Below, piece after piece: positions 2,957 to 22,888 of a stretch of 64,000 bases of DNA. Every line of letters begins with the position of its first letter. Positions within the stretch are counted from its first letter, which is position 1. The stretch comes from Spirochaetota bacterium (GTDB taxonomy: Bacteria > Spirochaetota > UBA4802 > UBA5550). The notes beneath the pieces are model-generated. The model was not told the DNA's origin and ran no database searches. It worked only from the letters and a program-made list of their open reading frames with translations. The stretch is taken from assembly GCA_963664815.2 (NCBI GenBank), contig CAXXHB010000002.1, positions 288,001-352,000 on the forward strand, in the 5' to 3' direction. A program made the translations under genes and the position numbers.

Positions 2957-3685
2957 CTTTATGCCTCATTATAATCAATTGTTCTTTCTTTGTGTCCAAC
3001 AGATAAATTCTTACGTACCAATGAACATTATTTAAAGAGCGGGTGCTCCCGAAGATCGCTTGTTTTGCAGTTAAATTTATTTTTTTAATACTTAAAAAAA
3101 AGCAGTGGAAAGAATGATACTTTCAGGCAGCAGAACCTTTTAAAATTAAATAGCATTTTATATATCGAATGGAGTTATCAAAATCCATTTATCTTCCCTG
3201 TGCAATTCTTTACTCTCTCTGATCTCATAGGTTTTCCCCTTAATCTCAAAAATAAAATTATAATCCATCCTCAGTTTTTCATCATCCACTTTATCAAATA
3301 TGTAAATAATTTCTCCTGGATATTTATTATACTCTTTTTCTAAAAATTCTGACTCAGTTTTAAAATGCAGAATATTCTTATCACTAAACATACTTCCATA
3401 AAACCAATCAATTCTTTTAAACGAAATGCTGTCACCTTCAGCATTAAATAAATTAACCGTACATTTCTTTATAATAATTGGTTGCCTCGTGCTTTTCCCT
3501 TGTAATCTAAAACTACTAAGTAAAACACCGGTCCATGACTCAATTTGATATTCAAATGCCATTTTAGTATTAAATAAATAAACCAGCTTAAGGTCTGTAT
3601 TTTTATTTATCTCCAGAACACAACTATCTTTATTTTCGCTGTCTAAATATGTAATTGATGTTCCCCCGAAAAAATGGACACTTTG

Positions 3686-4555
3686 TTAAGCCATTATTTT
3701 AAGATTTAATCTTTCAAAAATCTCCGGACTTTTATAACCCAGATGTGAATGCCTTCTTTTACGGTTATAAAATATTTCAATATATCTAAAGATACTTCTC
3801 TTAGCCTCATTCCTTGTTTTGTAAATATTAAAATAAAATTCTTCTGTTTTCATCGAATGAAATAAAGATTCAGCACAGGCATTATCCCAGCAATTGCCAT
3901 TCCTGCTCATACTCTGAATACATTTCTTTGATTCAAGTAATTCCCTGAAGGATTTGCTGGCATATTGTTTACCTCTATCAGAATGGAATATCAGGCCAGG
4001 GCCCGGATTTCTTCTCATACAGGCCATGTTAAAAGCATCTTCAACAAGTTCAGCTCTCATATGATTTGCCATTGACCATCCGACTATCATTCTGGAAAAT
4101 AAATCCATTACTATACATAAATACAGCCAGCCTTCTAATGTCCAGATATAGGTTATATCTGACACATATACTTTATCTTTCTCTTCAACAGTAAAATTCC
4201 TGTCTAGTATATTCTCAGACACTGGCAAAGAATGACCCGAATCAGTGGTTGCCTTAAATTTTTTCTTTGTCTTTGCATGAATCCCATTCACATTCATCAG
4301 CCTCTCAACCCTATGTATTCCGCAGAAAATACCTTCTTCAAGTAAATCCTGATGAATTCTGGGGCTGCCATAGCTCTCTCCGCTTGATTCATGTGATGAT
4401 TTTATCCTCTCCAATAGTATTTCATTTTCAAGCCCTCTTATACTCTTTGGAGCTTTCAGCCAGGCATAATAACCGCTTTTACTCACATCCATAATCTGGC
4501 ATATCCTCGATACTGGAAATTCAGTACTCTGTTCCTTGATGAATTCATATTTCAT
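3686..4555 (-). CDS. IS3 transposase OrfB (DDE integrase core)
   Basis: SDITY, FHSDRGKQY and NCWDNACAES motifs. Confidence 0.95.
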   Translation of the reverse strand: MKYEFIKEQSTEFPVSRICQIMDVSKSGYYAWLKAPKSIRGLENEILLERIKSSHESSGESYGSPRIHQDLLEEGIFCGIHRVERLMNVNGIHAKTKKKFKATTDSGHSLPVSENILDRNFTVEEKDKVYVSDITYIWTLEGWLYLCIVMDLFSRMIVGWSMANHMRAELVEDAFNMACMRRNPGPGLIFHSDRGKQYASKSFRELLESKKCIQSMSRNGNCWDNACAESLFHSMKTEEFYFNIYKTRNEAKRSIFRYIEIFYNRKRRHSHLGYKSPEIFERLNLKIMA

Positions 4556-4842
4556 TCTTGTGGTTTCGAGAATATGCCCAGAGCCTTTTTTAGAATGTCA
4601 CGCTCCTGCTTAAGAATCAACATTTCCTTCTTGAGTCGTTTAATTTCTTCACTATCCTGAGGATTTATTGTTATTGTCCCGGAATTCCTTTCCTCTGTTT
4701 CAATTTCCCTATTCCAGCGCAATAGATTATCTCTTTTAATCCCAAGATCATTCGCTATTTCAAGTGATGTCTTTCCGCTGGTTCTTAATAATTCTACAGC
4801 CTCTTTCTTAAATTCCGGGCTGTATTTACTTCTCTCTGACAT
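4552..4842 (-). CDS. IS3 transposase OrfA (HTH)
   Basis: KYSPEFKKEAV...ERDILKKA; A6G slippery site; ATGA overlap with orfB. Confidence 0.95.
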   Translation of the reverse strand: MSERSKYSPEFKKEAVELLRTSGKTSLEIANDLGIKRDNLLRWNREIETEERNSGTITINPQDSEEIKRLKKEMLILKQERDILKKALGIFSKPQE

Positions 4843-5217
4843 TGTAAGCCTCCAAATTTATTATATTTTCGGCTTAACTTAATGTCCACTATATCAGGGG
4901 AAGATCAAATATCCTTATATGGTATACATCCATTCATCAATGTTAACAAAATTATAATTATCAATATTTCCAATTTCATATTAATCTTCATTCATTTTTT
5001 AGTGAAACGATGACAAAGTATGTATTGTAATCTATATTTCAGCAGATACGGCTTCAAGGAGTCTTTGTCTATCTAAGTATGTATATATGTCATAATATAC
5101 ACTAGTCTATCCATTTTTTTCAATCTTTAAGTGTAAATTTTTTAACACGGATTTTCTGTGAGGTCTGCTCTGAACGAATCAAAGAGTAACTCAATAAGAG
5201 GTACAATGTTAAGTAAG

Positions 5218-8972: not shown

Positions 8973-9710
8973 TCATCTTATATCTTCTGTCTTTTTTGCA
9001 ACGATATGTACCATGCGGTTTATTGTTTCTGATGAGTCTATTTCAAAACCACAATTTTTTAAAATGGTAATGATTTCATTCTCTGAAACTCTTAACTTCT
9101 TATAAGCACTTATTTTTTGAATCCATTCTCCATTTTCTTTTTCATGGAGCAGATCATATACCAAAACAAAATTGTCAAAGTATTCTAAAAAACATGTTAA
9201 GATACGATTTTCGTCTGATTTAACCGGAAGAAACCGGCTTACACCTTCCAGCGGGACAGTCAGATCGCGATATGAAATAATTAATTTTCCACCAGGAACC
9301 AATAACCCGTATGATTTTTGAAAAAGTTTTTCAATTTCAGAAGATGACAACAAATGAGTAATAGTATCTCCCATGCATGTTATAATTTCAAATGAAGAAT
9401 ATGGAATAATACTAAAATCCATAAAATCAGCTTCAATTGTTTTGATATCCAGCCCGATAGATTTTTTATTCAATTCATATAAAAGCTGCTCACTGAAATC
9501 TATTGCAATGACCTTAAAACCTGATCGTGCAAGTGAAACAGATTGAATTCCATTACCACATCCAAGATCTAACGCCACACCGTTTGTGACCAGTTGAATA
9601 TTATGAGATTTAAAATATTTTTGTTGTTCGATTACTTTGGTTTCAAAATCTCCAAGCATCCATGAATAAAATTTTCCCAGATGGTTGTCATAATGCTCTT
9701 TCACTGTCAT
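8973..9710 (-). CDS. Class I SAM-dependent methyltransferase
   Basis: LDLGCGNG and CMGDTITHL motifs. Confidence 0.88.
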   Translation of the reverse strand: MTVKEHYDNHLGKFYSWMLGDFETKVIEQQKYFKSHNIQLVTNGVALDLGCGNGIQSVSLARSGFKVIAIDFSEQLLYELNKKSIGLDIKTIEADFMDFSIIPYSSFEIITCMGDTITHLLSSSEIEKLFQKSYGLLVPGGKLIISYRDLTVPLEGVSRFLPVKSDENRILTCFLEYFDNFVLVYDLLHEKENGEWIQKISAYKKLRVSENEIITILKNCGFEIDSSETINRMVHIVAKKTEDIR

Positions 9711-9940
9711 TGATTTTTACCTCCACAAACTACAGCATGAATTTACATTGCATCAGACCGGACAGGAATTGCGTATAATATCCTGCTGATGTAATATCGC
9801 ATTAGTCTTTAAAATACCTATGCCTGTGCTGAGAAATTGAATAATGTAATGTTCGATGCCAGAGATTTCGTACAGCAGAATTTATACGAAGGAATTGGCC
9901 ATTTCATATGATATTTGTAAAAAACTAAAAGTTTATCCTT

Positions 9941-10222
9941 CTATAGTCTTACTCTTTTATTTTCAAAAATAATTTTCAAACCAAGTGCTCCGCATACTTT
10001 CAGAAAAGTGTTGATATTACAATTAATTCCATTTTCAACTTTCGAAAGTTGTTGCTGGGTTACATGTGCTTTCTTTGCTAAGTCTTTTTGAGAAATTCCG
10101 AGTTTATTTCTTTCTTCTAAAATTTTTATTGAAAGAGATAGCAGTTCTCTTTCTTCATTATATAATTGTGTGAATTTTTCATCTTTTAATTCTTCTTTTA
10201 TTTGTTTTTTAAATGTTTTCAT
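9941..10222 (-). CDS. HigA-type XRE HTH antitoxin
   Basis: ISQKDLAKKAHVTQQQLSKVENG HTH; start set at MKTFKK, overlapping the toxin end. Confidence 0.85.
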   Translation of the reverse strand: MKTFKKQIKEELKDEKFTQLYNEERELLSLSIKILEERNKLGISQKDLAKKAHVTQQQLSKVENGINCNINTFLKVCGALGLKIIFENKRVRL

Positions 10223-10424
10223 TATAAACATCCAATATTTTTTTCTCATCAAATCTCTTTAAAAAATCAGCATAAGGACGCGTCAGGTTTGGACCTTCCT
10301 CTTCAAGAAATGAAAGTAATCCGAGAATCTTCGCTCGATTTTTTATACTTTTTGAAGAAATGAAATCTTCAACGGGGCATTCACCATTTTTTGTTTCATA
10401 ATAAATGATTTTCCAGTTTTTCAT
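10209..10424 (-). pseudogene. RelE/HigB (Gp49-like) toxin with internal deletion
   Basis: WKIIYYETKNGECPVEDF...GPNLTRPYADFL jumps directly to the C-terminal tail; the ELR/RILYF core is missing. Confidence 0.75.
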
Positions 10425-10461: not shown

Positions 10462-10660
10462 CTTAAATATTCTATTTATCTTATCGAAAGAATCTATTAC
10501 TATTGAGAGACAAAATAATTCTGGCTAATTCTTTCAGGGCAAATAATCTTGCGCTCTGCCCGCTGGCTGGGTAAATAATTATTTTACGTGATTATTATTT
10601 TTTCAGGTAAGTCACAGGATAATATAAGTTATCGATTGTTCCCCCCGCCGTTCGATGTAG

Positions 10661-11029
10661 TTATATAAAACGGTCTACTGATACATTAAATATTTTTGCT
10701 AATTTCTTTGCTGTTATTTTACTGACTGGTCTTGAACCATTTTCCATATTTGAAACATGTTGTTTTGGAATTCAACCAAGCATTTCTCCAAGTTTTTCCT
10801 GGGTTATTTTATGAATCTTCCTGTAAATTTTCATGTTGTCACCAGGAGTTTTTTCAGCATGAATTTTCTTATACCAATCAGTTTCAATGATATCTACAAA
10901 TTCATCATCTTCATCTTCTGTTAAATGAAATTTTTTACCGTATTTTTCTTTCAACAGTGTGATGATCTTCTGTGGAATATCACTTTTAATGTTTATTTCA
11001 ATATGGGGCGTTTTCACGACTGCCTGCAT
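10661..11029 (-). pseudogene. XRE antitoxin with premature TGA
   Basis: ...MLG*IPKQHVSNMENG...FNVSVDRFI*, in frame; the paralog at 16774 reads LGGISKQ. Confidence 0.85.
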
Positions 11030-11260
11030 AATATACCTCTATTATTAATGAATCATTTTCATAATACCAACATGCGACCCATTTGTATGATAGATGGCAA
11101 TGGTATTCATTTTTTCCTGACTTACTGAAGTTTGGCCATTCTTTTCTAATTTGTCATTTTTCTCTTAAATCTTTAACAAGGGATTCAAAAGTGAATTAAA
11201 TATCCTTCGGCATCATGAGGACATTTTTCATTATGCTTTTTTAATGATTATATTGTATAT
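10998..11260 (-). pseudogene. RelE-like toxin with several stops
   Basis: ...MPKDI*F...LREK*QIRKEWPNFSK...YHCHLSYKWVACW...IEVYYAGSRENAPY*. Confidence 0.75.
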
Positions 11261-11340
11261 AAATCAGAGTAATCATTTTATGGTTAGTGATCAAGATGTT
11301 TTTTGAATCTTTAAGTGTAATAATGACATAAAAGTTTAAT

Positions 11341-11377: not shown

Positions 11378-11701
11378 ATGAAGGTAGAGCTATCTACAAT
11401 AGCCGGTCATGCATCATAGAACATATATTCGGAGAAATAAATGAGTATAAACATTTCCGGAGATTCTATCATCGTGGACTGGAAAAGGTTAACACAATCC
11501 GGGCTATTTTCTGTAATGCTCATAATTTCCATAAGCTTGCCCGGCTGGAATACAGATTATAATTAAATAAATTAAAATATTCCCGAAGACATAGGATCTT
11601 CGGGATACATACAGGATTGTCAAAATAAAATCAGAGGATATTCAGTCGATATTATTTTAGACTACTCCATTTTTTTAATAAGCTACTTTTTCAACAGACT
11701 C
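11378..11701 (+). mobile_element. 3' remnant of IS1182-family element
   Basis: Highly similar to 21546-21874 (EGRAIYN...EHIFGEI...FRRFYHRGLEKVN); ends CAGACTC. Confidence 0.85.
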
Positions 11702-11730
11702 CTTTGTTATATGAAGTCGCCTGACTTTTT

Positions 11731-12099
11731 TTAAGAATTTTTAGTCAGAGTCCCTTGATGAAAAATCATTTTCCATTTATCATCCTTGTATTTCCATACC
11801 GAACTTCGAATTGAATATTTTTGTTCAAGATTAATTTCAGAATGCTTAATTAGTTTATATGTTGCTAAAACTATAAAATCAGATAATTGTTTAATCGAAA
11901 AATCAATTATTTCCCAATTAATTTTTGGAGAAATGAAAGTATCTCCTTTTTTGTAATGATATATTTTCCCATTGCTAGAAAATTCAATAAGTTCATCATC
12001 AATTATTTCATTTAATTTTTGTTCTGATTCTCTAGTCTCAGATTTTAATAATTGATTTTCTAAATAAAGTATTTCTTTTTCAATTGTTTTTATATTCAT
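11731..12099 (-). CDS. DUF4440 / NTF2-like protein (cassette-like)
   Basis: EFSSNG and RSSVWK...WKMIFHQGT motifs; attC R''-like ATATAAC shortly after the stop. Confidence 0.85.
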   Translation of the reverse strand: MNIKTIEKEILYLENQLLKSETRESEQKLNEIIDDELIEFSSNGKIYHYKKGDTFISPKINWEIIDFSIKQLSDFIVLATYKLIKHSEINLEQKYSIRSSVWKYKDDKWKMIFHQGTLTKNS

Positions 12100-12132
12100 G
12101 ACGATCTTGGCTTTTCATTAAGTTTAAAAATC

Positions 12133-12709
12133 TGTACAACCCGACGACATCGGTAACACTCTACTGTGCTTTCTGTACCTTTGTACCATCTGTTTTATAA
12201 ATAATCAAGCCGGTTATTTTATCCAGAACACCTATCATAAAATCATCAAACCATATGTCCAGTTCACCCTGGTTTTCTTTTATGCCAACATTATAACCGG
12301 CAAAAGGATTATCTACAAATAATCTCTTACCACTGTAATTGCAGAATCCGCAATCATTTACCATGCGACTTTTATAACCCTTGCCATAAACGATCAACAC
12401 ATCTTCCGGCTCGTAAACTCTACCGGACTTTACATATACATCAACCGGTCTTTTCATATCCAATGCTTCATGGGGACTAATTGTATTAAAGTCTTCACGC
12501 CACTTATCAAACACTCTCTGATGTTCATTCAGATTACCATCTATCTGCCCTTCGAGCTCTGCTTTCATATCACGATACATCCTCTCATGTCCGCCATTCT
12601 GATACGGGCATCCGGGATCGATACGGTCCAGTTTTATCCCCAGCGACATCCACCAAACTGATAGTTTACTCAGTCCGAATACATTGCCACCAGGGCCGCT
12701 CCTTTGCAT
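12133..12709 (-). pseudogene. IS481-family transposase, 3' fragment with terminal end
   Basis: LSKLSVWWMSLGIKLDRIDPGCPYQNGGHERM, FNTISPHEAL; TGT terminus at 12133. Confidence 0.8.
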
Positions 12710-12719
12710 CCGTGCAACC

Positions 12720-13173
12720 GCGGCACTACGACATCCATGTCGGACATATTTCTACAGTAGTCAGATAGTGGAGGTGAACCACCACAAAAAAACCGTTACC
12801 TTTCGGTATAAGAAGAGAATGGGTAGGAGATCAGAAAGAAGCATTACACCACTGAAACTATAAGCATATATGAATTTATAGCGCGTATGCTCTTCTTTTT
12901 GCCCGATAAACACCGTAAAATACTTCGCTACTACGTGATATATGCCCATAGTATAGAAAAGAAACTGGACAAAATTGAGCGAATCACCTGGTCAAAGGCC
13001 ATTGAGCATTCATTTGAAAAAATCCTGAAAAATGCCCGGCATATTCGTCTCATATGGTGAAGGATGTTGTATTTTCTTTTTATGCGGATAAAGAGATTAA
13101 GAGACTAATAACAACCCATGCTATTAGCAAAGGAAATTTTATACCCTATAAGAAAAAGGCACAGCCATCGTAA
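12720..13173 (+). pseudogene. IS91-family (Y2) transposase C-terminal fragment, frameshifted
   Basis: Manual translation: KTVTFRYKK / ISIYEFIARMLFFLPDKHRKILRYY / NPEKCP; resembles IS91-family EFIRR..LP......RYYG. Confidence 0.65.
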
Positions 13174-13174
13174 T

Positions 13175-13321
13175 TGCGAACGCAGGTTTGCTGAAGTTGA
13201 CAAAAAGAACTTGACTATGTTTCAAATTGGAAGATATATTTTCTCGATAGAAACGAGGTATACGTGAACATGAAATTTCGCGCGATTTTTGGCGCGAAAT
13301 TTTAACAACTCATTGCTATGA
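13175..13321 (+). other. Degenerate attC-like site
   Basis: TGCGAAC..GTTTGCTGAAGTT right after a stop; hairpin AAATTTCGCGC/GCGCGAAATTT (13273-13302); ends CTCATT-GCTATGA. Confidence 0.4.
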
Positions 13322-13545
13322 GGGACTTTTTTCTGCTGAATGAACCTTGTGGTGATACCGATAAGGCCGATTCTATCCCATTACGTAGGTTTCTCATGAG
13401 ACATCTGGTATCCTTTTTCACCCTTCTTGTCATTCCTTTTTCTCTAGTGTCGGCGGACTTTCCTACAACAATGAGAATGTTGTAGACTGAAACGCAGTTT
13501 TATAACCAACCATAAATTTTAAAAATATGTACGTAGGTAATTGAA

Positions 13546-14169
13546 ATGAATCATACTAAAGATCTTTTTGAAAAAGAATATGAAAAACCCATTGCACGTT
13601 GGACAAACGAAAATCCCCCACAAGAACTTACAGAGTTAATTGATTCTGAAATAATTAAACCTTGCAAAACTCTTGATATTGGATGCGGAGAAGGCTTTTA
13701 TTCTATTTATCTCGCAAAAAGAGGTTTTGAAGTCGTCGGAATAGACCTTTCAGAAAAGGCAATAGAATACGCAAAGAAAAATGCGAATGAAAATGGAGTG
13801 AATGTAAAATTCATTGCAATGAATGTAAAAAACTTGAACAAGTTGGATGAAAAGTTCGATTTTGTTTTTGAGTGGGCGTTTCTGCATTGCATAACAAAGC
13901 CCAAAGAAAGAGAAGAGTATATAGAAAAGGTGAGCAAACTATTAAATAAAGGTGGAAAATATTTTTCGATTTGTTTTAATGAAGATCAATTCAAAGAGAT
14001 CCCGGAAGAATCCAAGAAAGCCCTCGGATCAATATTATATTTTTCATCATTAAATGAACTTAAGAAATTATTCAGTTCTTATTTTAAGACAATAGAAAGT
14101 AAAGTAGTTGAAATTGTTGTATCCGGGAAAAAATTCATTTGGAACTATTTCCTGATGGAGAAAAAATAG
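13546..14169 (+). CDS. Class I SAM-dependent methyltransferase (TPMT/TehB-like)
   Basis: LDIGCGEG, GIDLSEKAI and FDFVFEWAFLH motifs; followed by ATATAAC at 14179. Confidence 0.88.
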   Translation: MNHTKDLFEKEYEKPIARWTNENPPQELTELIDSEIIKPCKTLDIGCGEGFYSIYLAKRGFEVVGIDLSEKAIEYAKKNANENGVNVKFIAMNVKNLNKLDEKFDFVFEWAFLHCITKPKEREEYIEKVSKLLNKGGKYFSICFNEDQFKEIPEESKKALGSILYFSSLNELKKLFSSYFKTIESKVVEIVVSGKKFIWNYFLMEKK

Positions 14170-14794
14170 GTAAGTTTTATATAACGTTAAGACATGCTTA
14201 ATACAAGCAGTGCATCGCCTGTTATATGCCGGCAGGTGGTCACTGAGCCTGCAAACGTACTGTTTGCTCAACATAACCGCCTGAGCAGTAACACGATATA
14301 ATATTAATGGATTTTAAATTACCGGATTTATAATTGCAATAATAATTCGTATGTAGAAATTTGAATAAATAAACAATTGCATCTTTATAACAACCAATAT
14401 ATCTGCTTTTAAATTATTGTTAAACGATACTTTCCGGAATAAATTATCAGTATTTTTCAGTTATCAGAATAAAAGTATACCTTCATGATCTTTTTATAGT
14501 TCCATAATCATAGTATTAATATATAGATAATAATCTACAACCGCTCCGGTTCGCTGGAGGTGAACTGTATAGTACCGGTTCAGGAATCTCCTTTAAAATA
14601 ATGTTTATTATATTTAACTGATGTCAGCATTATAAATAATCGAATTGTGTTGAAAACTACCTTATGACAAATTCACATTTTAGATACAAAATAAAACTTT
14701 CCGCCAAATGATAAACAGAAGCTCTCAAGATGCAATTTACCCTGCAATCAACGAGCCTCATCAAATCTTTGTTTAACATTTTCCACCTTTACTA

Positions 14795-16027
14795 CTATTT
14801 ATTTGACCATTCGCTATTGTATAGCAGACCATCATCAATACTGCTTTTTATATTATTTTTAAAAGGTGACAAAAGATATGTAATGAAAAGTAGACAAATT
14901 ACTGCTGAAATACCGGCGAATATCAGAACCAGTGCCACGCCTAATTTTTCTGCCATATACCCTCCAATCAGCATAGAGCAGATACCTGCAGGTGTTAATA
15001 ATCCCAAAACAGAACCATATACACTTCCCCTGATAGATGCCTGAGTAGACTGATCTCTTAATGTATGAATACTGACCAATGCTGCATAAAAGACTGCAAA
15101 GGAAAGCATTACAATCAGGCATGCAAGGTAATAATTTTTAATCAGCCCTAACGCAGCAAAGGAGGTAAAATGTATTAACAATCCCCATAATATAATCTGA
15201 TTGTTCTTCCTCTTTTTTGCAAGCCAGGGTCCTGCCAGGCTTCCGGCAATACTCCCCAGCCCTATCAGCGTCATAAAAAATCCATATTGACTATCATTTC
15301 CGGCAAGAAACGTTTTCACATAGATTATAAAAAGTGAAACCTGCAATCCAAGGAAGAGCCGCCATGTGACTCCGACATATACCAAGTATTTCAAATAATT
15401 ATTATCTTTTATATATTTGAACCCGTCCGGGATTTTTTTCATTGGATTTATTTTTTCTGCAGTAACATTTATTTTTTCCGATTTAATAAAGCAGCTCATT
15501 ACAGCTGTGACTATATATATAATACAAGTAGCATACAATAATACATTAATCTGAAATTTCAGAACAACAAGACCTCCTATCAATGGCGCCAAGAGCTTTG
15601 CCGCATTCAGTAATATTAATATAACGGAGTTACCTGTGTGATATTTTTCTGCAGGTATAATCTCTGCAATTAACGTACCTCTTACATTCATTATGAAGGT
15701 AAGCATTATTGAAATACAAAACCAGAGGGCGTAAACTTCAGATATATTATTCACCAATGACAGGAAAAACAGCATTACTGATGTAGCCAAGGCAATAATG
15801 CGCAGTACATTGAGTCTACTAAATCTGTCTGCTATTGCACCACAGACCGGTGAAAAGAATCTTGGTAAATATGTCAGCACAGCAAATAGACTTACATTTA
15901 ATGCGCTCTTTGTGATATCATATACATGCACTGTCATGATAAAGAATATAAACTCATATCCAAAGGCTGACAGGACATATGTAACAAAGAAATTATTTAC
16001 ATTTTGTTTCTTCGTGATTTGTTTCAT
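14795..16027 (-). CDS. MFS transporter (DHA3/macrolide-efflux-like)
   Basis: About 12 hydrophobic segments, GAIADRFSR motif A, IRGSVYG. Confidence 0.9.
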   Translation of the reverse strand: MKQITKKQNVNNFFVTYVLSAFGYEFIFFIMTVHVYDITKSALNVSLFAVLTYLPRFFSPVCGAIADRFSRLNVLRIIALATSVMLFFLSLVNNISEVYALWFCISIMLTFIMNVRGTLIAEIIPAEKYHTGNSVILILLNAAKLLAPLIGGLVVLKFQINVLLYATCIIYIVTAVMSCFIKSEKINVTAEKINPMKKIPDGFKYIKDNNYLKYLVYVGVTWRLFLGLQVSLFIIYVKTFLAGNDSQYGFFMTLIGLGSIAGSLAGPWLAKKRKNNQIILWGLLIHFTSFAALGLIKNYYLACLIVMLSFAVFYAALVSIHTLRDQSTQASIRGSVYGSVLGLLTPAGICSMLIGGYMAEKLGVALVLIFAGISAVICLLFITYLLSPFKNNIKSSIDDGLLYNSEWSNK

Positions 16028-16032
16028 ATAGC

Positions 16033-16140
16033 TTACACTCTTAATTGTGATAAAAAGGGATTACTGCTACTTGGCTCTACACAATGAAAGCTTGAAAAAC
16101 AGTGTACTAAAACCTTTTCTTTGATTACTTGCTTTTTCAT
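16033..16140 (-). CDS. 35-aa small ORF (leader peptide or gene remnant)
   Basis: GGAGG RBS then MKKQVIKEKVLVHCFSSFHCVEPSSSNPFLSQLRV*; stop 5 nt before the MFS ATG. Confidence 0.4.
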   Translation of the reverse strand: MKKQVIKEKVLVHCFSSFHCVEPSSSNPFLSQLRV

Positions 16141-16222
16141 AATTCCTCCATTTTTCCTGCAATTCTTTGTTTACATTTATACCAATCGAAATTATCAGGT
16201 CAACAGAACGAATTGATGTGTT

Positions 16223-16241
16223 ATATCGTAGTTTCCGATAT
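16223..16241. promoter_or_regulatory. LysR-type operator (T-N11-A palindrome)
   Basis: ATATCG-TAGTTTC-CGATAT between the divergent MFS operon and the lysR remnant. Confidence 0.6.
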
Positions 16242-16263
16242 GATGCTTTATTGGAGTATTTAC

Positions 16264-16520
16264 GTGGATTTTAAACAGCTTTACACATAGGGCTATTGCA
16301 ACGCTTTGAAGCTTTAATCAAGCCGCAGACACACTTGATTATGCGTAGTCGACAGTGTCAGAGCAGATCAGGACACTTGAGACGAATTTAGGTGTTAAAC
16401 TATTTAAAAGGGACAGTAAAAAATAGCTCTCTTACTTCGGCGTGTGAACTTCTTTTACATTATGCTTAAAAAATAATAAGTCTTGAAGCGAAGAAGAGGT
16501 TAGTTCGGAATACATAGGAT
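16264..16520 (+). pseudogene. LysR-family regulator, decayed HTH fragment
   Basis: GTG start: MDFKQLYT/AIATL*SFNQAADTLDYA*STVSEQIRTLETNLGVKLFKRD; truncated next to an IS21-like end. Confidence 0.8.
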
Positions 16521-16533
16521 GCTAAGAGATATC

Positions 16534-16586
16534 AAACCGGCAAAATTATGTCGGTGAAAAGCGGCAAATTCTAATTGGTGTTCACA
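16534..16586. mobile_element. IS21-like terminal inverted repeat
   Basis: Minus strand TGTGAACACCAATTAGAATTTGCCGCTTTTCACCGACATAATTTTGCCGG with internally repeated TTTGCCG. Confidence 0.6.
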
Positions 16587-16730
16587 ATTATTATTTTTTC
16601 CGGTAAAATCACCGGATTATTACTGCATGTTATTTCAAATACCGGAAGAAAACGGTGTTCAAATCTCTATTAATACTTGTGCTGAGTATAATCGAAGTAT
16701 GTTCTGCCCGATAGCAGCGGTTTCGTCCAC
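16587..16730. repeat. Dispersed ~140-bp repeat, copy A
   Basis: Shares GATTATTACTGCATGTTATTTCAA, ACCGGAAGAAAACGGT, TTGTGCTGAGTATAA and ATGTTCTGCCCGATA with 22621-22750. Confidence 0.85.
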
Positions 16731-16773
16731 GAGAGTACAAGGATGTACTCATGTATGATAAATGTTTATGATT

Positions 16774-17142
16774 TTAAATAAACCTATCTATTGGTACATT
16801 AAAAATTTTCGATAATTCTTTAGCATTCTGTTTACTGATAGCCCTTGTTCCTCTTTCCATATGAGATATGTTTTGCTTAGAGATTCCTCCAAGTTTTTCT
16901 CCTAATTCTTCCTGTGTCATTTTATGGATTTCACGATAAATTTTCATGCTCTTACCAGGAAACATTTTACTATCAATTTCTTTGAACCAATCAGTTTCAA
17001 AGACGTCAATTAGTTCGTCTTCACTATCTTTAATCAGCTTCATTTTTTTCCCATAAACCTCTTTCAATACAGAAAGAACTTTTGGAGGTATTTCTCCTTC
17101 AATTTCGATTTTAATATGTGGCGTCTTCACGTGAGCCTGCAT
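16774..17142 (-). CDS. XRE-family antitoxin (orphan)
   Basis: MQAHVKTPHIKIEI...MTQEELGEKLGGISKQNISHMERG; paralog of 10661-11029. Confidence 0.85.
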   Translation of the reverse strand: MQAHVKTPHIKIEIEGEIPPKVLSVLKEVYGKKMKLIKDSEDELIDVFETDWFKEIDSKMFPGKSMKIYREIHKMTQEELGEKLGGISKQNISHMERGTRAISKQNAKELSKIFNVPIDRFI

Positions 17143-17195
17143 AATATACCTCAATTACAATTGAATTCTTTTCATGTTTCCAGCATGCAATCAAT
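17111..17195 (-). pseudogene. RelE-like toxin C-terminal remnant
   Basis: IACWKHEKNSIVIEVYYAGSREDATY*, homologous to the toxin tail at 10998-11100. Confidence 0.75.
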
Positions 17196-17249
17196 TTATA
17201 CTTTTCTACAGTCTCGTTATATGAAGGCGCACCACTTTTTAAATATAAC

Positions 17250-17882
17250 TTATTTCTTAATAAACAATGTTTCTGGCATAAAATCACAACCTATCGATTC
17301 ATCAGGAATTACTGCTTGTAATCTTAAATAATTTTTATCAATTTGAAATACTAATTCTACTTTATCTTTTTTTGCAATATTAAAGTCACTACTTTTAATT
17401 TTCAATTTGATTGTTTTACCATCAACATGATATGTTCCTCTAACAATTCCAAAGCCGTGGCATAAATTAATGTAATATTTGAAGGTTTTATCTTTATAAA
17501 TAAAAAGTTGAGACGGGTTATATTTTGTCAAATCTGTAACCATTATATATTCACCAACAATTGGTACTCTTTCGTCAATTTTTATCTCAGACAAAAATCC
17601 ATCAAAAACATAACCGAGCTTATTGCCATATTGGACTTTAATCCAATTACCTGGAATCCCTTTAACAGTTACCATGTCATTGATATAGACTTTTTGTTCT
17701 ATTAGATTAATCTTTGAATTAAATGGTATAATATATAGAATTTTTGAATCAGCTGAATTATTTTTATGTAAACTAACACCAGATTTTGGTGTAACAAATA
17801 AACTTTTATTTTTTGATAACAACATAAGTGGTAATAATAAAATAAATGTAATATAAAAAATCAGAAATTTATTTCTTTTCAA
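17250..17882 (-). CDS. Exported SH3-domain protein
   Basis: Signal peptide; VTPKSGVSLH...GNWIKVQYGNKLGYVFDGFLS bacterial SH3 pattern. Confidence 0.75.
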   Translation of the reverse strand: MKRNKFLIFYITFILLLPLMLLSKNKSLFVTPKSGVSLHKNNSADSKILYIIPFNSKINLIEQKVYINDMVTVKGIPGNWIKVQYGNKLGYVFDGFLSEIKIDERVPIVGEYIMVTDLTKYNPSQLFIYKDKTFKYYINLCHGFGIVRGTYHVDGKTIKLKIKSSDFNIAKKDKVELVFQIDKNYLRLQAVIPDESIGCDFMPETLFIKK

Positions 17883-17929
17883 TTTTTACCCTTTAAATCC
17901 TAAATTATAATCAAATATAAAATTTATTA

Positions 17930-19060
17930 TCAAAAGAAATATCCAAAATCAATCGCAATTGTTTTAATCGAACCAGTATAAAGATCTCGCGAAATAATTT
18001 TTTTATCAACTGAATAAATTAACCAACGATCAATGATTTTATAAACAGCATAATCATCTGGTTCTAAGATTATTTGCTTATCTTTATATACATCATATAT
18101 TACTAAATAATCATCTGGTGATGAGCGACCCTCAATTTTTTTTTCTTTATTAAAAACTAAAAATCTTCCATCTTCACTAATCGTAATTCCTTGATAATCT
18201 TCATTTTCATCAGGTTGCGTTACATGATATACTTTATTTTTTCTCAAATCTAAATATTCGATCCAAGTATGTATATCTTTTAGCGGTTTAAACTGTACAT
18301 AAGCAAGAGTATTATTTCCTGATATTTTAAAACCATTTGTTAATAAAGGAAACTGTTTGAATTTTTCAAATTTATTTGTTTCAATATAATAATATGATAA
18401 ATTGTGTTCTAACCCAGAATTATCAAAATCTTCAAAATTTCTATGTATTTTTTGCATATCATAATATTTGTTATCATCTAGTTCATAACATAATATAGTG
18501 TTTGAATTTGGTACAAATTGCAGAAAGCCCCCAAGCTTCCGTATATATGTAGTTTTTTCATTTCGTGTGTTATAATAATAAAATCCCTTTTTGGGATTTA
18601 TTCTATGCAACAGTTCATTTTCTGTGCTCGGGCATTCTCTGAAATAAATAAAATAATCACCTGTATCACTCCATCCAGTTAGTAAGATTTCTGATGCAGT
18701 ATAATCGCTTGTTTCTTCATAAAATTTTTCGATAAATCGTTCTGTATTTTTCTTTAAGTTCATTATATATAAGTCATTATTCTTTAAATATGCTAAAAAC
18801 TCTCCATTTTTTGAGATTAATGGATAGCCTCTTCCTCTGAAGGCACTCATATTGCCCATGCCACTTTTACCTGCAACTATCTTATTATTTCCAAGCGCAT
18901 CTAGAATACAAATATCATCATTTTCAGCAAGATAGCATAAATATGGAATATTTTTTACTTCGGGTATTTTATCTGTAATCTGTTCAGGTAAATTTGGATT
19001 TTTACAAGATTCTAATGCCAGCATTATTAGGAGAAAAAAAATAGCTTTTATTGATTTCAT
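17930..19060 (-). CDS. Lipoprotein with TolB/WD40-like beta-propeller repeats
   Basis: Start MKSIKAI, lipobox LESC; ISKNGEFLAY, WSDTGDYFIY and ISEDGRFLVF repeats. Confidence 0.7.
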   Translation of the reverse strand: MKSIKAIFFLLIMLALESCKNPNLPEQITDKIPEVKNIPYLCYLAENDDICILDALGNNKIVAGKSGMGNMSAFRGRGYPLISKNGEFLAYLKNNDLYIMNLKKNTERFIEKFYEETSDYTASEILLTGWSDTGDYFIYFRECPSTENELLHRINPKKGFYYYNTRNEKTTYIRKLGGFLQFVPNSNTILCYELDDNKYYDMQKIHRNFEDFDNSGLEHNLSYYYIETNKFEKFKQFPLLTNGFKISGNNTLAYVQFKPLKDIHTWIEYLDLRKNKVYHVTQPDENEDYQGITISEDGRFLVFNKEKKIEGRSSPDDYLVIYDVYKDKQIILEPDDYAVYKIIDRWLIYSVDKKIISRDLYTGSIKTIAIDFGYFF

Positions 19061-19129
19061 ATTATTCAATCCTCTATTTTTTAGTTCAATAATAAGTATA
19101 TTTAAATCTAAATTTTGTAGCACGATTTT

Positions 19130-19228
19130 GTTCAACGCCTAGCTTACGCAAAGTTGGCCGAAGGCCAATTTGCCGAGCCTGTTTCTCAAGTCAAGTGCCA
19201 AGGAGCGAAAGCGACGCAGCGCCGTAAG
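19130..19228 (-). other. attC-like site, L''-L'-R' portion (R'' portion displaced to 21875-21885)
   Basis: Minus strand CTTACG...central hairpins...CGTAAGCTAGGC-GTTGAAC (GTTRRRY) directly upstream of an orphan gene. Confidence 0.65.
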
Positions 19229-19429
19229 TTTTGAGTCTAACGCAAAAATAAATATTAATTTACTGTCAACACACAGGATGTGAATAATATCAATCATCTT
19301 TTAAAAAAAGGATAAAGATATGAATGCACGCTACCACTCATACACTCCAGACCAGCTCTTTATATGATCTTCCCCTGATATAGTGGACATTAAGTTAAGC
19401 CGAAAATATAATAAATTTGGAGGCTTACA

Positions 19430-19720
19430 ATGTCAGAGAGAAGTAAATACAGCCCGGAATTTAAGAAAGAGGCTGTAGAATTATTAAGAACCAGCGGAAA
19501 GACATCACTTGAAATAGCGAATGATCTTGGGATTAAAAGAGATAATCTATTGCGCTGGAATAGGGAAATTGAAACAGAGGAAAGGAATTCCGGGACAATA
19601 ACAATAAATCCTCAGGATAGTGAAGAAATTAAACGACTCAAGAAGGAAATGTTGATTCTTAAGCAGGAGCGTGACATTCTAAAAAAGGCTCTGGGCATAT
19701 TCTCGAAACCACAAGAATGA
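19430..19720 (+). CDS. IS3 transposase OrfA
   Basis: Protein identical to 4552-4842; AAAAAAG at 19681 with the -1 frame open into orfB. Confidence 0.95.
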   Translation: MSERSKYSPEFKKEAVELLRTSGKTSLEIANDLGIKRDNLLRWNREIETEERNSGTITINPQDSEEIKRLKKEMLILKQERDILKKALGIFSKPQE

Positions 19721-20586
19721 AATATGAATTCATCAAGGAACAGAGTACTGAATTTCCAGTATCGAGGATATGCCAGATTATGGATGTGAGTAAAAGCGGT
19801 TATTATGCCTGGCTGAAAGCTCCAAAGAGTATAAGAGGGCTTGAAAATGAAATACTATTGGAGAGGATAAAATCATCACATGAATCAAGCGGAGAGAGCT
19901 ATGGCAGCCCCAGAATTCATCAGGATTTACTTGAAGAAGGTATTTTCTGCGGAATACATAGGGTTGAGAGGCTGATGAATGTGAATGGGATTCATGCAAA
20001 GACAAAGAAAAAATTTAAGGCAACCACTGATTCGGGTCATTCTTTGCCAGTGTCTGAGAATATACTAGACAGGAATTTTACTGTTGAAGAGAAAGATAAA
20101 GTATATGTGTCAGATATAACCTATATCTGGACATTAGAAGGCTGGCTGTATTTATGTATAGTAATGGATTTATTTTCCAGAATGATAGTCGGATGGTCAA
20201 TGGCAAATCATATGAGAGCTGAACTTGTTGAAGATGCTTTTAACATGGCCTGTATGAGAAGAAATCCGGGCCCTGGCCTGATATTCCATTCTGATAGAGG
20301 TAAACAATATGCCAGCAAATCCTTCAGGGAATTACTTGAATCAAAGAAATGTATTCAGAGTATGAGCAGGAATGGCAATTGCTGGGATAATGCCTGTGCT
20401 GAATCTTTATTTCATTCGATGAAAACAGAAGAATTTTATTTTAATATTTACAAAACAAGGAATGAGGCTAAGAGAAGTATCTTTAGATATATTGAAATAT
20501 TTTATAACCGTAAAAGAAGGCATTCACATCTGGGTTATAAAAGTCCGGAGATTTTTGAAAGATTAAATCTTAAAATAATGGCTTAA
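19717..20586 (+). CDS. IS3 transposase OrfB
   Basis: Protein identical to 3686-4555. Confidence 0.95.
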   Translation: MKYEFIKEQSTEFPVSRICQIMDVSKSGYYAWLKAPKSIRGLENEILLERIKSSHESSGESYGSPRIHQDLLEEGIFCGIHRVERLMNVNGIHAKTKKKFKATTDSGHSLPVSENILDRNFTVEEKDKVYVSDITYIWTLEGWLYLCIVMDLFSRMIVGWSMANHMRAELVEDAFNMACMRRNPGPGLIFHSDRGKQYASKSFRELLESKKCIQSMSRNGNCWDNACAESLFHSMKTEEFYFNIYKTRNEAKRSIFRYIEIFYNRKRRHSHLGYKSPEIFERLNLKIMA

Positions 20587-20945
20587 CAAAGTGTCCATTT
20601 TTTCGGGGGAACATCAATAGTCCAGATAAATCCTGAAGAAATCCACAGACATAATTCTCTTGTATCTGCAATAGATGACTTTGTCAAAAACATGTCTCAT
20701 TATCACCATTTTCAGCAAAATATGCCAACAGCTTAAACGGAGCTCCGGCTATTCATGCCGGGATGATGCTTAAAGTAATTTTTTATTGTTTCGCTACATG
20801 AAGTTACAGTTCAAGAGAGATCGAAAGGAGAACTAACTGGGATCAGAATGTAATTTACCTTTCCGGTGACAGCTCAGTAGATCATAGTACAATCTGCCGT
20901 TTTATAGAAAAATATCCGGAAGAGATAACAAATGTATTTTCACGA

Positions 20946-21533
20946 ATGGTATATGTACTTAAAAAGATGGGTTTAATAAATTATGATATTGTTGCAATTG
21001 ACGGTAGTAAAATTCAGGGATACGGGAGCAAAGAGTTTACAGGTAACATAAAGGAATTTAAAGAGCAGAAGAGACGTATAGAAAAAAAGATTTCAATACT
21101 TCTGAACAATACAACAAACGATATTTCGCTGCCGGAAAAGAAACTTAAGCGTTGGGAATATAATCTTGAAAAAATAACATCTTTTCTTGCTGACGTAGAA
21201 AATTCAGATAATAACGATTATGAACATACACGCATTAATCTGACAGACCGCAATGCAAGACTTTTGAAGGACAGTGGCCGAATTTATCTGGGTTATAACT
21301 GTCAGACAGCAGCCATTGGGGAAAATAATATAATTGTCGGGTACCAGGTAACTAATAATGCCAGTGACAAGTCTCAACTGGTCCCGATGATAGATGAAGT
21401 AAAAAAACATCAGAATGACCACAGCATTGAAATGAAAGTAGTCGTTGATGCGGGATACTTCACTTCCGAAAATATCGAATATGCAGAAGAAAATGCCATA
21501 ACAATTTCAGGGCAGGAACAGGATGAAGAGTAA
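20946..21533 (+). pseudogene. IS1182 transposase central fragment
   Basis: VAIDGSKI, NLTDRNARLLK, GYNCQTA and VVDAGYFT motifs; frameshifts on both sides. Confidence 0.85.
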
Positions 21534-21986
21534 ACTATTGAGTCCTGAAGGTAGAGCTATCTACAATAACCGGTCATGCATCATGGAACATGGAACATAT
21601 ATTCGGAGAAATAAAGGAGTATAAACATTTCCGGAGATTCTATCACCGTGGACTGGAAAAGGTTAACACAATATGGTCTCTTATCTGTATTGCTCATAAT
21701 TTCCGGAAGTTCGCCCGGCTGGAAGACAGATTATAATTAAATAAATTAAAATATTCCCAAAGACACACGATCTTCGGGATACATACAGGATTGTAAAAAT
21801 AAAATCAGAGGATATTCAGCCGATATTATTTTAAACTACGTATTTTTTTAATATGTTACTTTTGCGACAGACTCCTTTGTTATCGGCTGTTGACCCGCCC
21901 CTTATTATCTTTTTCGTATAAATTTGTTCAAGTGGAAAACGATGTCGAGCCTGAATAATTCAGATATAAATATTTTTGTAAATCTG

Positions 21987-22307
21987 CTATAATCCCATTT
22001 GCAAAGCTCTTTTAATAACAGGAGCAACTGTATCATTATTTATTTTATTATTTTTACAATATTCTGAATTTATCCAGTCTGATAATTTTTTAGTTCCTTT
22101 ACTTGAATTACATGCTGAACAACATCTGGCAATATTTTCTTTTGTAATAATAGTCTGGTCATTAATTATATGTTCCCACGTTGCAGCATTTTTCCTTGAT
22201 TCTCCTCGATTTACTTTTTCAACCATTTTAATCCCACAATAAACACAGTTCTTATCTCTTATAATTATTTCTTTCTCCATTTCTTCAGGAATATTCCATC
22301 TATTCAT
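21987..22307 (-). CDS. HNH endonuclease
   Basis: RDKNCVYCG...WEHI...NIARCCSACNSSKG. Confidence 0.88.
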   Translation of the reverse strand: MNRWNIPEEMEKEIIIRDKNCVYCGIKMVEKVNRGESRKNAATWEHIINDQTIITKENIARCCSACNSSKGTKKLSDWINSEYCKNNKINNDTVAPVIKRALQMGL

Positions 22308-22321
22308 GTATTAATTTCCTT

Positions 22322-22630
22322 TTATACAGAGTGAAATTCTTTTTCTAAGAACTCAACTCCAGTTTTATATGGATCATTTTGTTTCTTAAGAAACTCAATA
22401 TTTGTTTTGTATTGTTCTGGAAAATTTTTAAATTCTTCCGCCATACGTTTAACACCTGCTGGACATAGATAGGCTGGTGTATTTAATCCATTTATTCCTA
22501 AGGAGGAGATTTTTTCATCAAATAATTCTTCGGATACTTCAACGCCGAATAATGTTTTTACTGCTTTATTTGTTAATTGTATAAAATATGGAATTCTTAC
22601 TACTTTATATCTTAGATTTATAAAATCATC
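22322..22630 (-). pseudogene. 5'-truncated gene, possibly DUF559/Vsr-like nuclease C-terminus
   Basis: Open frame without start: FINLRYKVVRIPYFIQLTNKAVK...TPAYLCPAGVKRMAEEF...HSV*; cut at repeat copy B. Confidence 0.5.
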
Positions 22631-22750
22631 AGATTATTACTGCATGTTATTTCAAGGACCGGAAGAAAACGGTATTAAAATTCCTGTCTATATTTGTGCT
22701 GAGTATAAAAACGAAGCATGTTCTGCCCGATACCAGCAGCTTCGTTCAAC
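22621..22750. repeat. Dispersed ~140-bp repeat, copy B
   Basis: See copy A; 24-bp exact core at 22632-22655 matches 16615-16638. Confidence 0.85.
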
Positions 22751-22888
22751 AAAAGCCTTAAAATAGCTGTTGCCTGAAATTTCAAACATTCTGCTTAATA
22801 TTGTTATCCCGCTGATAAAGAATGGCAGTTTTTTTGGGGCAGCTACGTTAAGACTTCTATAACGTATATACAGAGCTCACCCCTGGCT

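Follow-up and report, generated by a model that had tools for sequence, protein, structure and literature searches.

Insertion sequence ends beside cassette genes in the window

We analyzed a 64,000-nucleotide stretch of a Spirochaetota bacterium genome (assembly GCA_963664815.2, contig CAXXHB010000002.1, positions 288,001 to 352,000 of the forward strand), referred to here as the window. It carries degenerate copies of an insertion sequence (IS) of the IS1182 family, whose right ends lie next to boxes that resemble the termini of attC cassette recombination sites. The ends of attC sites are an inverse core, RYYYAAC, and a core, GTTRRRY. The genome carrying the window is called G000, and positions without a contig label are window coordinates. 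The initial annotation had pointed out three such junctions, at 11701, 17215 and 21874. The strings it quoted are present, with exact matches at 11685-11701 and 21858-21874 and ACAGTCTCGTTATATG at 17208-17223. It had also described the same IS end at all three junctions. This is correct for 11701 and 21874, which are true IS1182-family right ends, and incorrect for 17215, which we read as a relic of a different lineage.

The first junction terminates a 3' fragment of the element (11379..11701, plus strand), consisting of a C-terminal transposase remnant, with the C-terminal motif recognizable in the translation, and the right tip ...TTCAACAGACTC. The fragment is 89.7% identical to positions 21546-21883 across 339 nt. 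It is followed on the same strand (11702..11712) by a CTTT spacer (11702-11705) and a GTTATAT box (11706-11712), 18 nt downstream of the stop codon of a cargo gene for a DUF4440 protein (11731..12099, minus strand; Pfam PF14534, E 2.3e-10). Read in reverse complement, the box is an R''-type inverse core, and this layout is repeated at all eight right ends in G000.

The junction at 21874 belongs to a longer, degenerate element (19233..21874, plus strand) with inverted tips that match: the left one, at 19233, reads GAGTCTAACGCAAAAATAA, and the right one reads GAGTCTGTCGCAAAAGTAA in reverse complement. Its transposase survives in frameshifted, internally deleted pieces. They share 75% amino-acid identity with the intact 483-residue transposase of a relative, L146, and contain two in-frame TGA stops. 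The best family model for a 195-residue piece is NF033551 IS1182, at 95.9 bits for a fragment that stays under the cut-off of 270, and DDE_Tnp_1 is the sole surviving Pfam domain. Immediately to the left lies the body of a GC-rich attC-like site of the kind we call type B (19130..19232, plus strand), cut off by the IS; it has a GTTCAAC box and a GCTTAC arm at one end and a CGTAAG arm and a TTTT spacer (19229-19232) at the other. A covariance model, R1, which was built only from eight uninterrupted type B sites described below, matches positions 19128-19240 with 28.5 bits (E 6e-7). This is the only significant match in the window, and the site is absent from the training set; alignment with the eight intact sites also supports the body. 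On the right, the IS is followed by CTTT, the second copy of the 4-nt spacer whose left copy is TTTT, and by a GTTATCG box (together 21875..21885, plus strand), 101 nt downstream of the stop codon of a cargo gene with a weak HNH match (21987..22307, minus strand; PF01844, E 0.0079, below the cut-off).

Within this copy lies an IS3-family element (19365..20616, plus strand) with intact orfA and orfB, a 3-bp ATA duplication and the Pfam domains HTH_Tnp_1 and rve. The window contains two IS3-family copies, at 3654-4911 (minus) and 19361-20618 (plus). Because they are 99.9% identical and their orfA and orfB are intact, the IS3 is recent or active, unlike the IS1182 relics.

At the third junction, a tip-like 16-nt relic, ACTTTTCTACAGTCTC, touches a GTTATAT box (17199..17222, plus strand) with neither CTTT nor an IS body. 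Upstream is a toxin-antitoxin remnant (16774..17200, minus strand) comprising an HTH_3 antitoxin (16774-17154, E 1.6e-14) and a 5'-truncated RelE/HigB-like toxin (to ~17200), whose translation ...KYKLIACWKHEKNSIVIEVYYAGSRED parallels a copy at 11030-11300. On the other side is a cargo gene with a borderline SH3_3 match (17250..17882, minus strand; 26.8 bits against a cut-off of 27), so that the minus-strand genes beside the three junctions (DUF4440, SH3 and HNH) are those given in the initial annotation. The 33-nt junction is found once more in the genome, at G000:C3:1385350 (minus), beside another cassette. A second IS1182 lineage has right tips similar to ACTTTTCTACAGTCTC; they read CTTTTTCTACAGCCTC directly followed by GTTAT in the genomes G397 and G429, and CTACAGGCTC in the congener G006. 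From this resemblance, we read junction 17215 as a short relic of the G397/G429/G006-type lineage and not of the window IS. The two related toxin-antitoxin modules of the window, at 10640-11300 and 16774-17200, have a toxin broken by stops in the first and truncated in the second; the antitoxin open reading frame (ORF) of the first (10772-11029, 85 residues) has no Pfam match. An Rfam scan of the whole window returned nothing relevant, its single match at E up to 1 being a chance microRNA.

The boxes are ends of attC-like sites in cassette arrays

The GTTAT-type box terminates repeated elements that resemble recombination sites and come in two kinds. Type A sites are 122-nt inverted-repeat structures that end a conserved block of ~390 nt and occur in arrays, in ~30 copies. 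Type B sites are GC-rich, 96-98 nt long and organized as a box, 5 nt, GCTTAC..., ...GTAAGC, TTT and GTTRYRY. The eight type B sites have the paired ends expected of attC, with ATATAAC or GTTCAAC at one end and GTTATAT, GTTGTGC or GTTAGGT at the other; two are degenerate. In their consensus fold (RNAalifold), an R stem on the outside and an L stem on the inside are separated by a 4/2-nt internal loop, the middle is variable, and 16 of the 29 pairs show compensatory changes, as expected of an attC hairpin. When folded singly, site B1 is stable on both strands (z -3.7).

Of 41 related genomes, 22 have sites that R1 recognizes. In the complete genome of the congener G006 there are 50 matches; a stretch of 96 kb (4.329-4.425 Mb) carries at least 31 of these on a single strand, and this array ends 2 kb from an IntI-like gene. 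A 20-kb sample of it (L165, G006:C1:4409000-4428800) has 12 sites spread over 16 kb, and ORFs on the minus strand end beside them. The cargo ORFs of G006 end 14 nt from a site, each being followed by one, and are encoded on the strand opposite to the R1 model orientation with their 3' ends next to the site. We assigned site polarity from this cargo direction, as box complementarity is ambiguous: inverted boxes flank the cassettes, and either reading fits. Because each G006 gene precedes its site on the cargo strand, the box at the IS right tip is the inverse-core, R'' end, which bears out the R'' label given to it initially. A ParE/Phd cassette present twice in G000 (L131:3956-4941 and 9362-10348, 99.8% identical) fits the logic of cassettes, as each copy lies between the 21-nt inverted boxes GTTATGCGAAGGTCTGCCCCC and GGGGGCAGACTTTCGCATAAC.

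The recombinases beside the arrays are IntI-like tyrosine recombinases of 356-388 residues. Of the solved structures, VchIntIA (2a3v, E 1e-44) is the best relative, and the proteins also pass the XerA/integron-integrase model. They are co-oriented with the cassettes, and the type B arrays lie downstream (G006:C1:4328803-4427745; G007:C25:36855-50943; G000 L130:10136-11209, whose recombinase has 357 residues). One-strand type B arrays together with these recombinases may represent an undescribed integron-like class. At one further locus, L131:12386-14429 (G000:C3:3695386-3697429), an IS91-family transposase gene (429.5 bits) directly follows and overlaps the gene of a 287-residue tyrosine recombinase, and the pair adjoins an intact type B site.

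The IS subfamily inserts at one position and in one orientation

The subfamily of the window IS has the tips GAGTCTGTCGCAAAA. Copies were sampled in G000, G007, G082, G310 and four metagenome contigs; a longer two-part tip pattern had given no matches in metagenome contigs, and a protein-based scan then gave the four. Two intact relatives, L146 (483 residues, 272.3 bits) and L144 (477 residues, 297.3 bits), exceed the NF033551 IS1182 cut-off of 270 and have the domain order DUF772 - DDE_Tnp_1 - DDE_Tnp_1_6, which places them in the IS1182 family. L146 has a perfect 17-bp terminal inverted repeat, GAGTCTGTCGCAAAAGT, and the element length in L144 and L146 is 1.66-1.78 kb.

Eight right ends are present in G000, seven found by blastn and one short relic by motif search; one of the eight copies is a 268-nt element that kept both tips. 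In every case the tip is followed by (C/G)TTT and a box (GTT in six, CTT in one, GCT in one), and the sequence past the box is unrelated. Seven of the eight lie within 12 kb of recognized sites and are co-oriented with them. Both G000 copies that keep a left tip start exactly after GTAAG(C)-YTT, and their right flank resumes with CTTT-GTT.... In uninterrupted sites the same point reads GTAAGC-TTT-GTTRYRY; the insertion point of the IS is thus the short spacer that stays unpaired where the R and L stems meet, between box and L arm. A separate exact-pattern scan of the genome contigs gave 113 loci matching the IS tip, which were rejected as chance matches since none had further IS similarity.

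Comparing the flanks of genomic and metagenomic copies, as the initial annotation had proposed, extends this pattern beyond G000. All 16 right ends (eight from G000, one from G007, four from metagenome contigs and three from G310) are followed by a short spacer and a box. The spacer is 4 nt long in 15 and 5 nt in one, the box is GTT in 13, and the sequence past the box differs every time. The right end in G007 reads CTTT-GTTATGT, and those in the metagenome contigs, whose transposases are 63-88% identical, read CTTT-GTTGTCT, ATTT-GTTATAT, CTTT-GTTATAT and CCGCT-GTTATGC. Three intact copies, with 47% transposase identity and the same tips, come from G310, a genome whose family is distant within the phylum.

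Of ten left ends, six abut an attC-like body, and in the other four a body was not shown. Four of the six were identified by R1, which scores the site ending at the IS tip at 28.5 bits in the window, 19 in the MITE-like copy, 31.9 in G082 and 56.3 in L147; the left flanks of L146 and of G082:C20 align to the site body by eye. In G082, which belongs to another family and has a 65% identical transposase, one left tip follows ...CGGTTATGC-TTT in a site with a different L arm and adjoins an intact site with GCACAAC/GTTGTGC ends; the second (C20) follows ...GCGCATAGC-CCGT. Among three metagenome left ends, two follow GGGTAAGC-TTT, and one has a 21-nt flank with no recognizable arm. Four of the seven complete copies have a perfect 4-bp duplication: L146 (CTTT) and the three copies of G310 (CGCT, CCGT and ACGT, followed by GTCATAT, GTTCTAC and GTTGTAT). 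Three of four positions match in two others and two of four in the last. No flipped copy was found in the subfamily, and the element is always antisense to the cassette genes in G000, G007, G082, G310 and the four metagenome contigs.

Homing into attC-like sites and its alternatives

The insertion position, its orientation, the duplication, the transposase family and the array context are read directly from these copies. They make it highly probable that the relics in the window come from an IS1182-family (DDE) subfamily whose homing targets are attC-like cassette recombination sites. The initial proposal of orientation-specific targeting of such sites by a DDE transposase is thereby supported, by the right ends, most left ends, the duplications of four complete copies and the lack of flips.

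A number of observations weigh against this reading. A blastn search found no intact copy of the window IS in the 5.2-Mb G000 genome, where all copies are relics. IS DNA is present in two of 41 relatives, G000 included, and the protein in two of 122 genomes of the class at E 1e-20. Because G000 has no intact copy and IS DNA is rare among relatives, activity is deduced from footprints. L144 has no duplication (ATCT versus CTTT) and a left flank of 21 nt only. The right end at C3:1051128 is 51 kb from the nearest recognized site. Single folds of the type B sites are uneven: B2 is clear on one strand only (z -2.95 and -1.57) and a third site gives z -1.28 and -0.73, so that one of the three is clearly stable on both strands. 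The best recombinase of G000 reaches 220.7 bits against the TIGR02249 cut-off of 265, in two matched stretches that skip the IntI-specific positions 180-234, and the integron integrase model has no protein above its cut-off in G000, G003, G006, G007 or G082. Because the adjacent recombinases lack the IntI-specific domain, we call the sites only 'attC-like', a name based on their structure and array context. Finally, flipped copies do occur at the box in IS1182 lineages of ~30% identity, seen at the right tip in G006 and at the left tip in G037, so that strict orientation characterizes the subfamily and not the family.

Further points of this kind bear on specific alternatives. In the one that survives best, one or a few ancestral insertions by a box were spread by cassette recombination, duplication or one-ended rearrangement, without any choice of target. 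Two truncated relics, G000:C3:3585982-3586145 and C3:1051128-1051294 (minus), begin at the same internal position of the IS and have different flanks on both sides. The third-junction relic occurs twice together with the toxin remnant, beside different cassettes. Because the neighbors differ in both pairs, some junctions reflect later rearrangement and not fresh insertion, and the shared truncation point may point to rearrangement at one end or to an exchange involving the box. A single founder would also be compatible with the constant CTTT in G000. Nevertheless, we regard this explanation as improbable. The two G000 copies that keep their left ends lie in clearly different site bodies, and copies from other genera and from metagenome contigs, whose transposases are 47-88% identical, sit at this same position in this same orientation. 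The spacers differ (CGCT, CCGT, ACGT, ATTT), with perfect duplications. Independent transposition events are needed because spacers, duplications and genera differ at one position and orientation. Within G000, the number of independent insertions is between two and eight; its copies are all old relics, and after insertion some of the junctions were probably relocated.

A second alternative is that the transposase reads only a short word, NNNN followed by a GTT-purine/pyrimidine pattern, and that structure and cassette context are irrelevant. The spacer does vary, with the GTT-type box as the constant feature. Empty sites rebuilt in silico mostly fold poorly, with one of five folding better than shuffles (z -2.9) and the window site at z ~0, and R1 has no match in the left flanks of G310 or of G082:C20. 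These results also belong among the points against homing. Yet CTTTGTT occurs 975 times in G000, compared with 12 recognized type B sites, and both copies with left ends lie in such sites. Seven of the eight right ends are close to recognized sites and share their orientation, and at least six of ten left ends have a site body as their flank. There is also precedent for structure-directed insertion in the IS1182 family (PMC4923244). We give this alternative slightly less credence than the first. A third, that box and spacer belong to longer ends of the element itself and nothing is targeted, takes up the nearly constant CTTT past the tip in G000 and was rejected as having almost no chance of being right: L'-TTT-GTTRYRY is uninterrupted, with no IS, in eight G000 sites and dozens in relatives, the sequence after GTT differs at each copy, the 4 nt differ among G310 copies and are duplicated on both sides, and the left tip is not preceded by a mirror image of CTTT.

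A model for insertion and its relation to known systems

In the homing model that we propose, the target is an imperfect hairpin of ~100 nt that reads, on the cargo strand, R'' box (RYRYAAC), 3-nt spacer, L'' arm ... L' arm, spacer and R' box. A 4-bp staggered cut over the R''/L'' spacer, on the IS strand ...GTAAG-CTTT^GTTRYRY, would lead to the duplication of 4 nt. Entry is one-way, with the right tip at the R'' box, the left tip at the hairpin body and the transposase gene antisense to the cassettes. Because the CTTTGTT heptamer so far outnumbers the recognized type B sites, we infer that the transposase recognizes structure, either the site in folded or cruciform form or the place where stem and spacer meet, rather than the bare word; this would be analogous to IS1272 at terminator hairpins. 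Insertion would split R'' from the L and R' parts and so probably disable the site, and two neighboring cassettes would therefore be locked together. Such a split should fuse neighboring cassettes and seed the decay of an array into an IS-ridden remnant like that in the window.

Three known systems share parts of this behavior. IS1272/TnSha1, of staphylococci, has a transposase of the same IS1182 family and targets hairpins, in or at the base of the stem (PMC4923244). Its targets are terminator hairpins without a shared sequence, entered in both orientations, with no duplication and with part of the target deleted. In contrast, the window subfamily uses one class of recombination site, one position and one orientation, and makes a 4-bp duplication. 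The IS1111-attC elements (ISPa21 and ISPst6, of the IS110/IS1111 family) also use the attC sites in cassette arrays as targets; they insert close to the 5' end of the site and opposite in direction to cassette transcription (PMC3001079), a position and polarity that match those seen here. They differ in having a DEDD transposase guided by a seeker/bridge RNA (PMC11187229) and are not known to make a classical duplication; the window subfamily has a DDE transposase of the IS1182 type and not a DEDD one, 17-19-bp inverted tips and a 4-bp duplication. Group IIC-attC introns such as S.ma.I2 enter the bottom strand of attC, opposite to cassette transcription and between gene and site (PMC3001079), so that in layout too, close to the 5' end of the site and running against the cassettes, they agree with the window subfamily. 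These introns are retroelements with a ribozyme and a reverse transcriptase. Rfam detected no group II intron in the window, and there is no reverse transcriptase among the Pfam matches of the 38 ORFs scanned.

The host arrays resemble sedentary chromosomal integrons and CALIN in their arrays of imperfect hairpins, their RYYYAAC/GTTRRRY-type ends, the site after a small cargo gene (toxin-antitoxin genes and unknowns) and the adjacent tyrosine recombinase. Unlike in those systems, the recombinases fall under the TIGR02249 cut-off, lack positions 180-234 and point in the same direction as the cassettes, and the spacers are 3 and 5 nt. No description of attC targeting by IS1182 elements was found in the full-text literature, a search that subscription journals and ISfinder notes lay outside. 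While attC homing is known for IS1111-attC elements and group IIC-attC introns, and hairpin targeting for IS1272, what would be new is an IS1182-type element that carries out attC-like homing.

To our knowledge, attC sites are the sole common target of two very different mobile elements. If the homing reading is true, a third attC-targeting element with an ordinary DDE transposase would make the folded cassette site a general landing pad, and the reading of DNA structure and polarity by a transposase could be studied in a simple system that needs only protein. We also put forward, more tentatively and with rather less than even confidence, a wider proposal: that a clade of the IS1182 family evolved true attC homing, reading the folded site and cutting its unpaired spacer in one polarity; that this is a third independent invention, made in large integron-like arrays of a Bacteroidota-type lineage with IntI-like recombinases that lack the presumed domain for reading the extrahelical bases of attC; and that these arrays are an undescribed class of integron with its own parasites. 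Arrays beside IntI-like recombinases without the IntI-specific domain merit a study of their own.

Other IS1182 lineages and repeats of the arrays

Other IS1182 lineages were compared with the subfamily. G000 contains a second IS1182-family element of 509 residues, 30% identical to L146, in two copies (C3:454529-455971 and 2132664-2134106) that are 99.4% identical. It sits in GC-rich palindromes of the type CCCCGCACCCC...GGGGGCAAAG, and neither copy has an R1 match, which serves as a negative control. Copies in G408 likewise have no R1 match, and a GC-rich hairpin follows the right tip in the three inspected. The G255 lineage (30% identity, three copies) lies in type-B-like sites with the right tip against GTTATAT or GTTAGGC, and the G397/G429 lineage abuts GTTAT boxes and apparently duplicates GTT. 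Hairpin targeting thus seems to be general in the IS1182 family, and several of its lineages are specialized on attC-like sites.

The window also contains a type A site (22744..22870, plus strand), which reads GTTCAAC ... ACGTTAAGACTTCTATAA followed by a degenerate CGTATAT box and forms the end of a ~390-nt repeat block (22621-22870). Its fold is weak (z -0.7 and -0.6). The block, which is longer in some subgroups, is present in the window at 16587-16735 (truncated) and at 22621-22870, and elsewhere in G000, for example at C3:2534-2567 kb, 3193-3210 kb, 3686-3693 kb and 1367-1387 kb. Its hairpin part contains a terminator-like stem. Outside the hairpin, the block is conserved without a kept reading frame. 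On the strand of the cargo genes that come next, it precedes them and could serve them as a common leader or promoter region. The idea that part of the repeat is a tRNA-like 3' end or a small ORF was dropped, as 15 translated copies show stops and shifts.

A further repeat is associated with an IS110-family transposase. At 14180..14290 (plus strand), an ATATAAC box after a plus-strand methyltransferase gene is followed by a relic of this repeat, which elsewhere flanks the transposase. The repeat begins GTTAAGA... right after ...ATAAC boxes and has a hairpin of its own, AAGAGTATC...GATACTCTT; other copies are at L131:4860-5030 and 10270-10370 and at seven other places in G000. The IS110-family gene in the arrays (L131:5069-6154, 179.2 bits) is unrelated to the IS1182 element, and the repeat may mark another kind of element, RNA-guided, that targets these boxes too.

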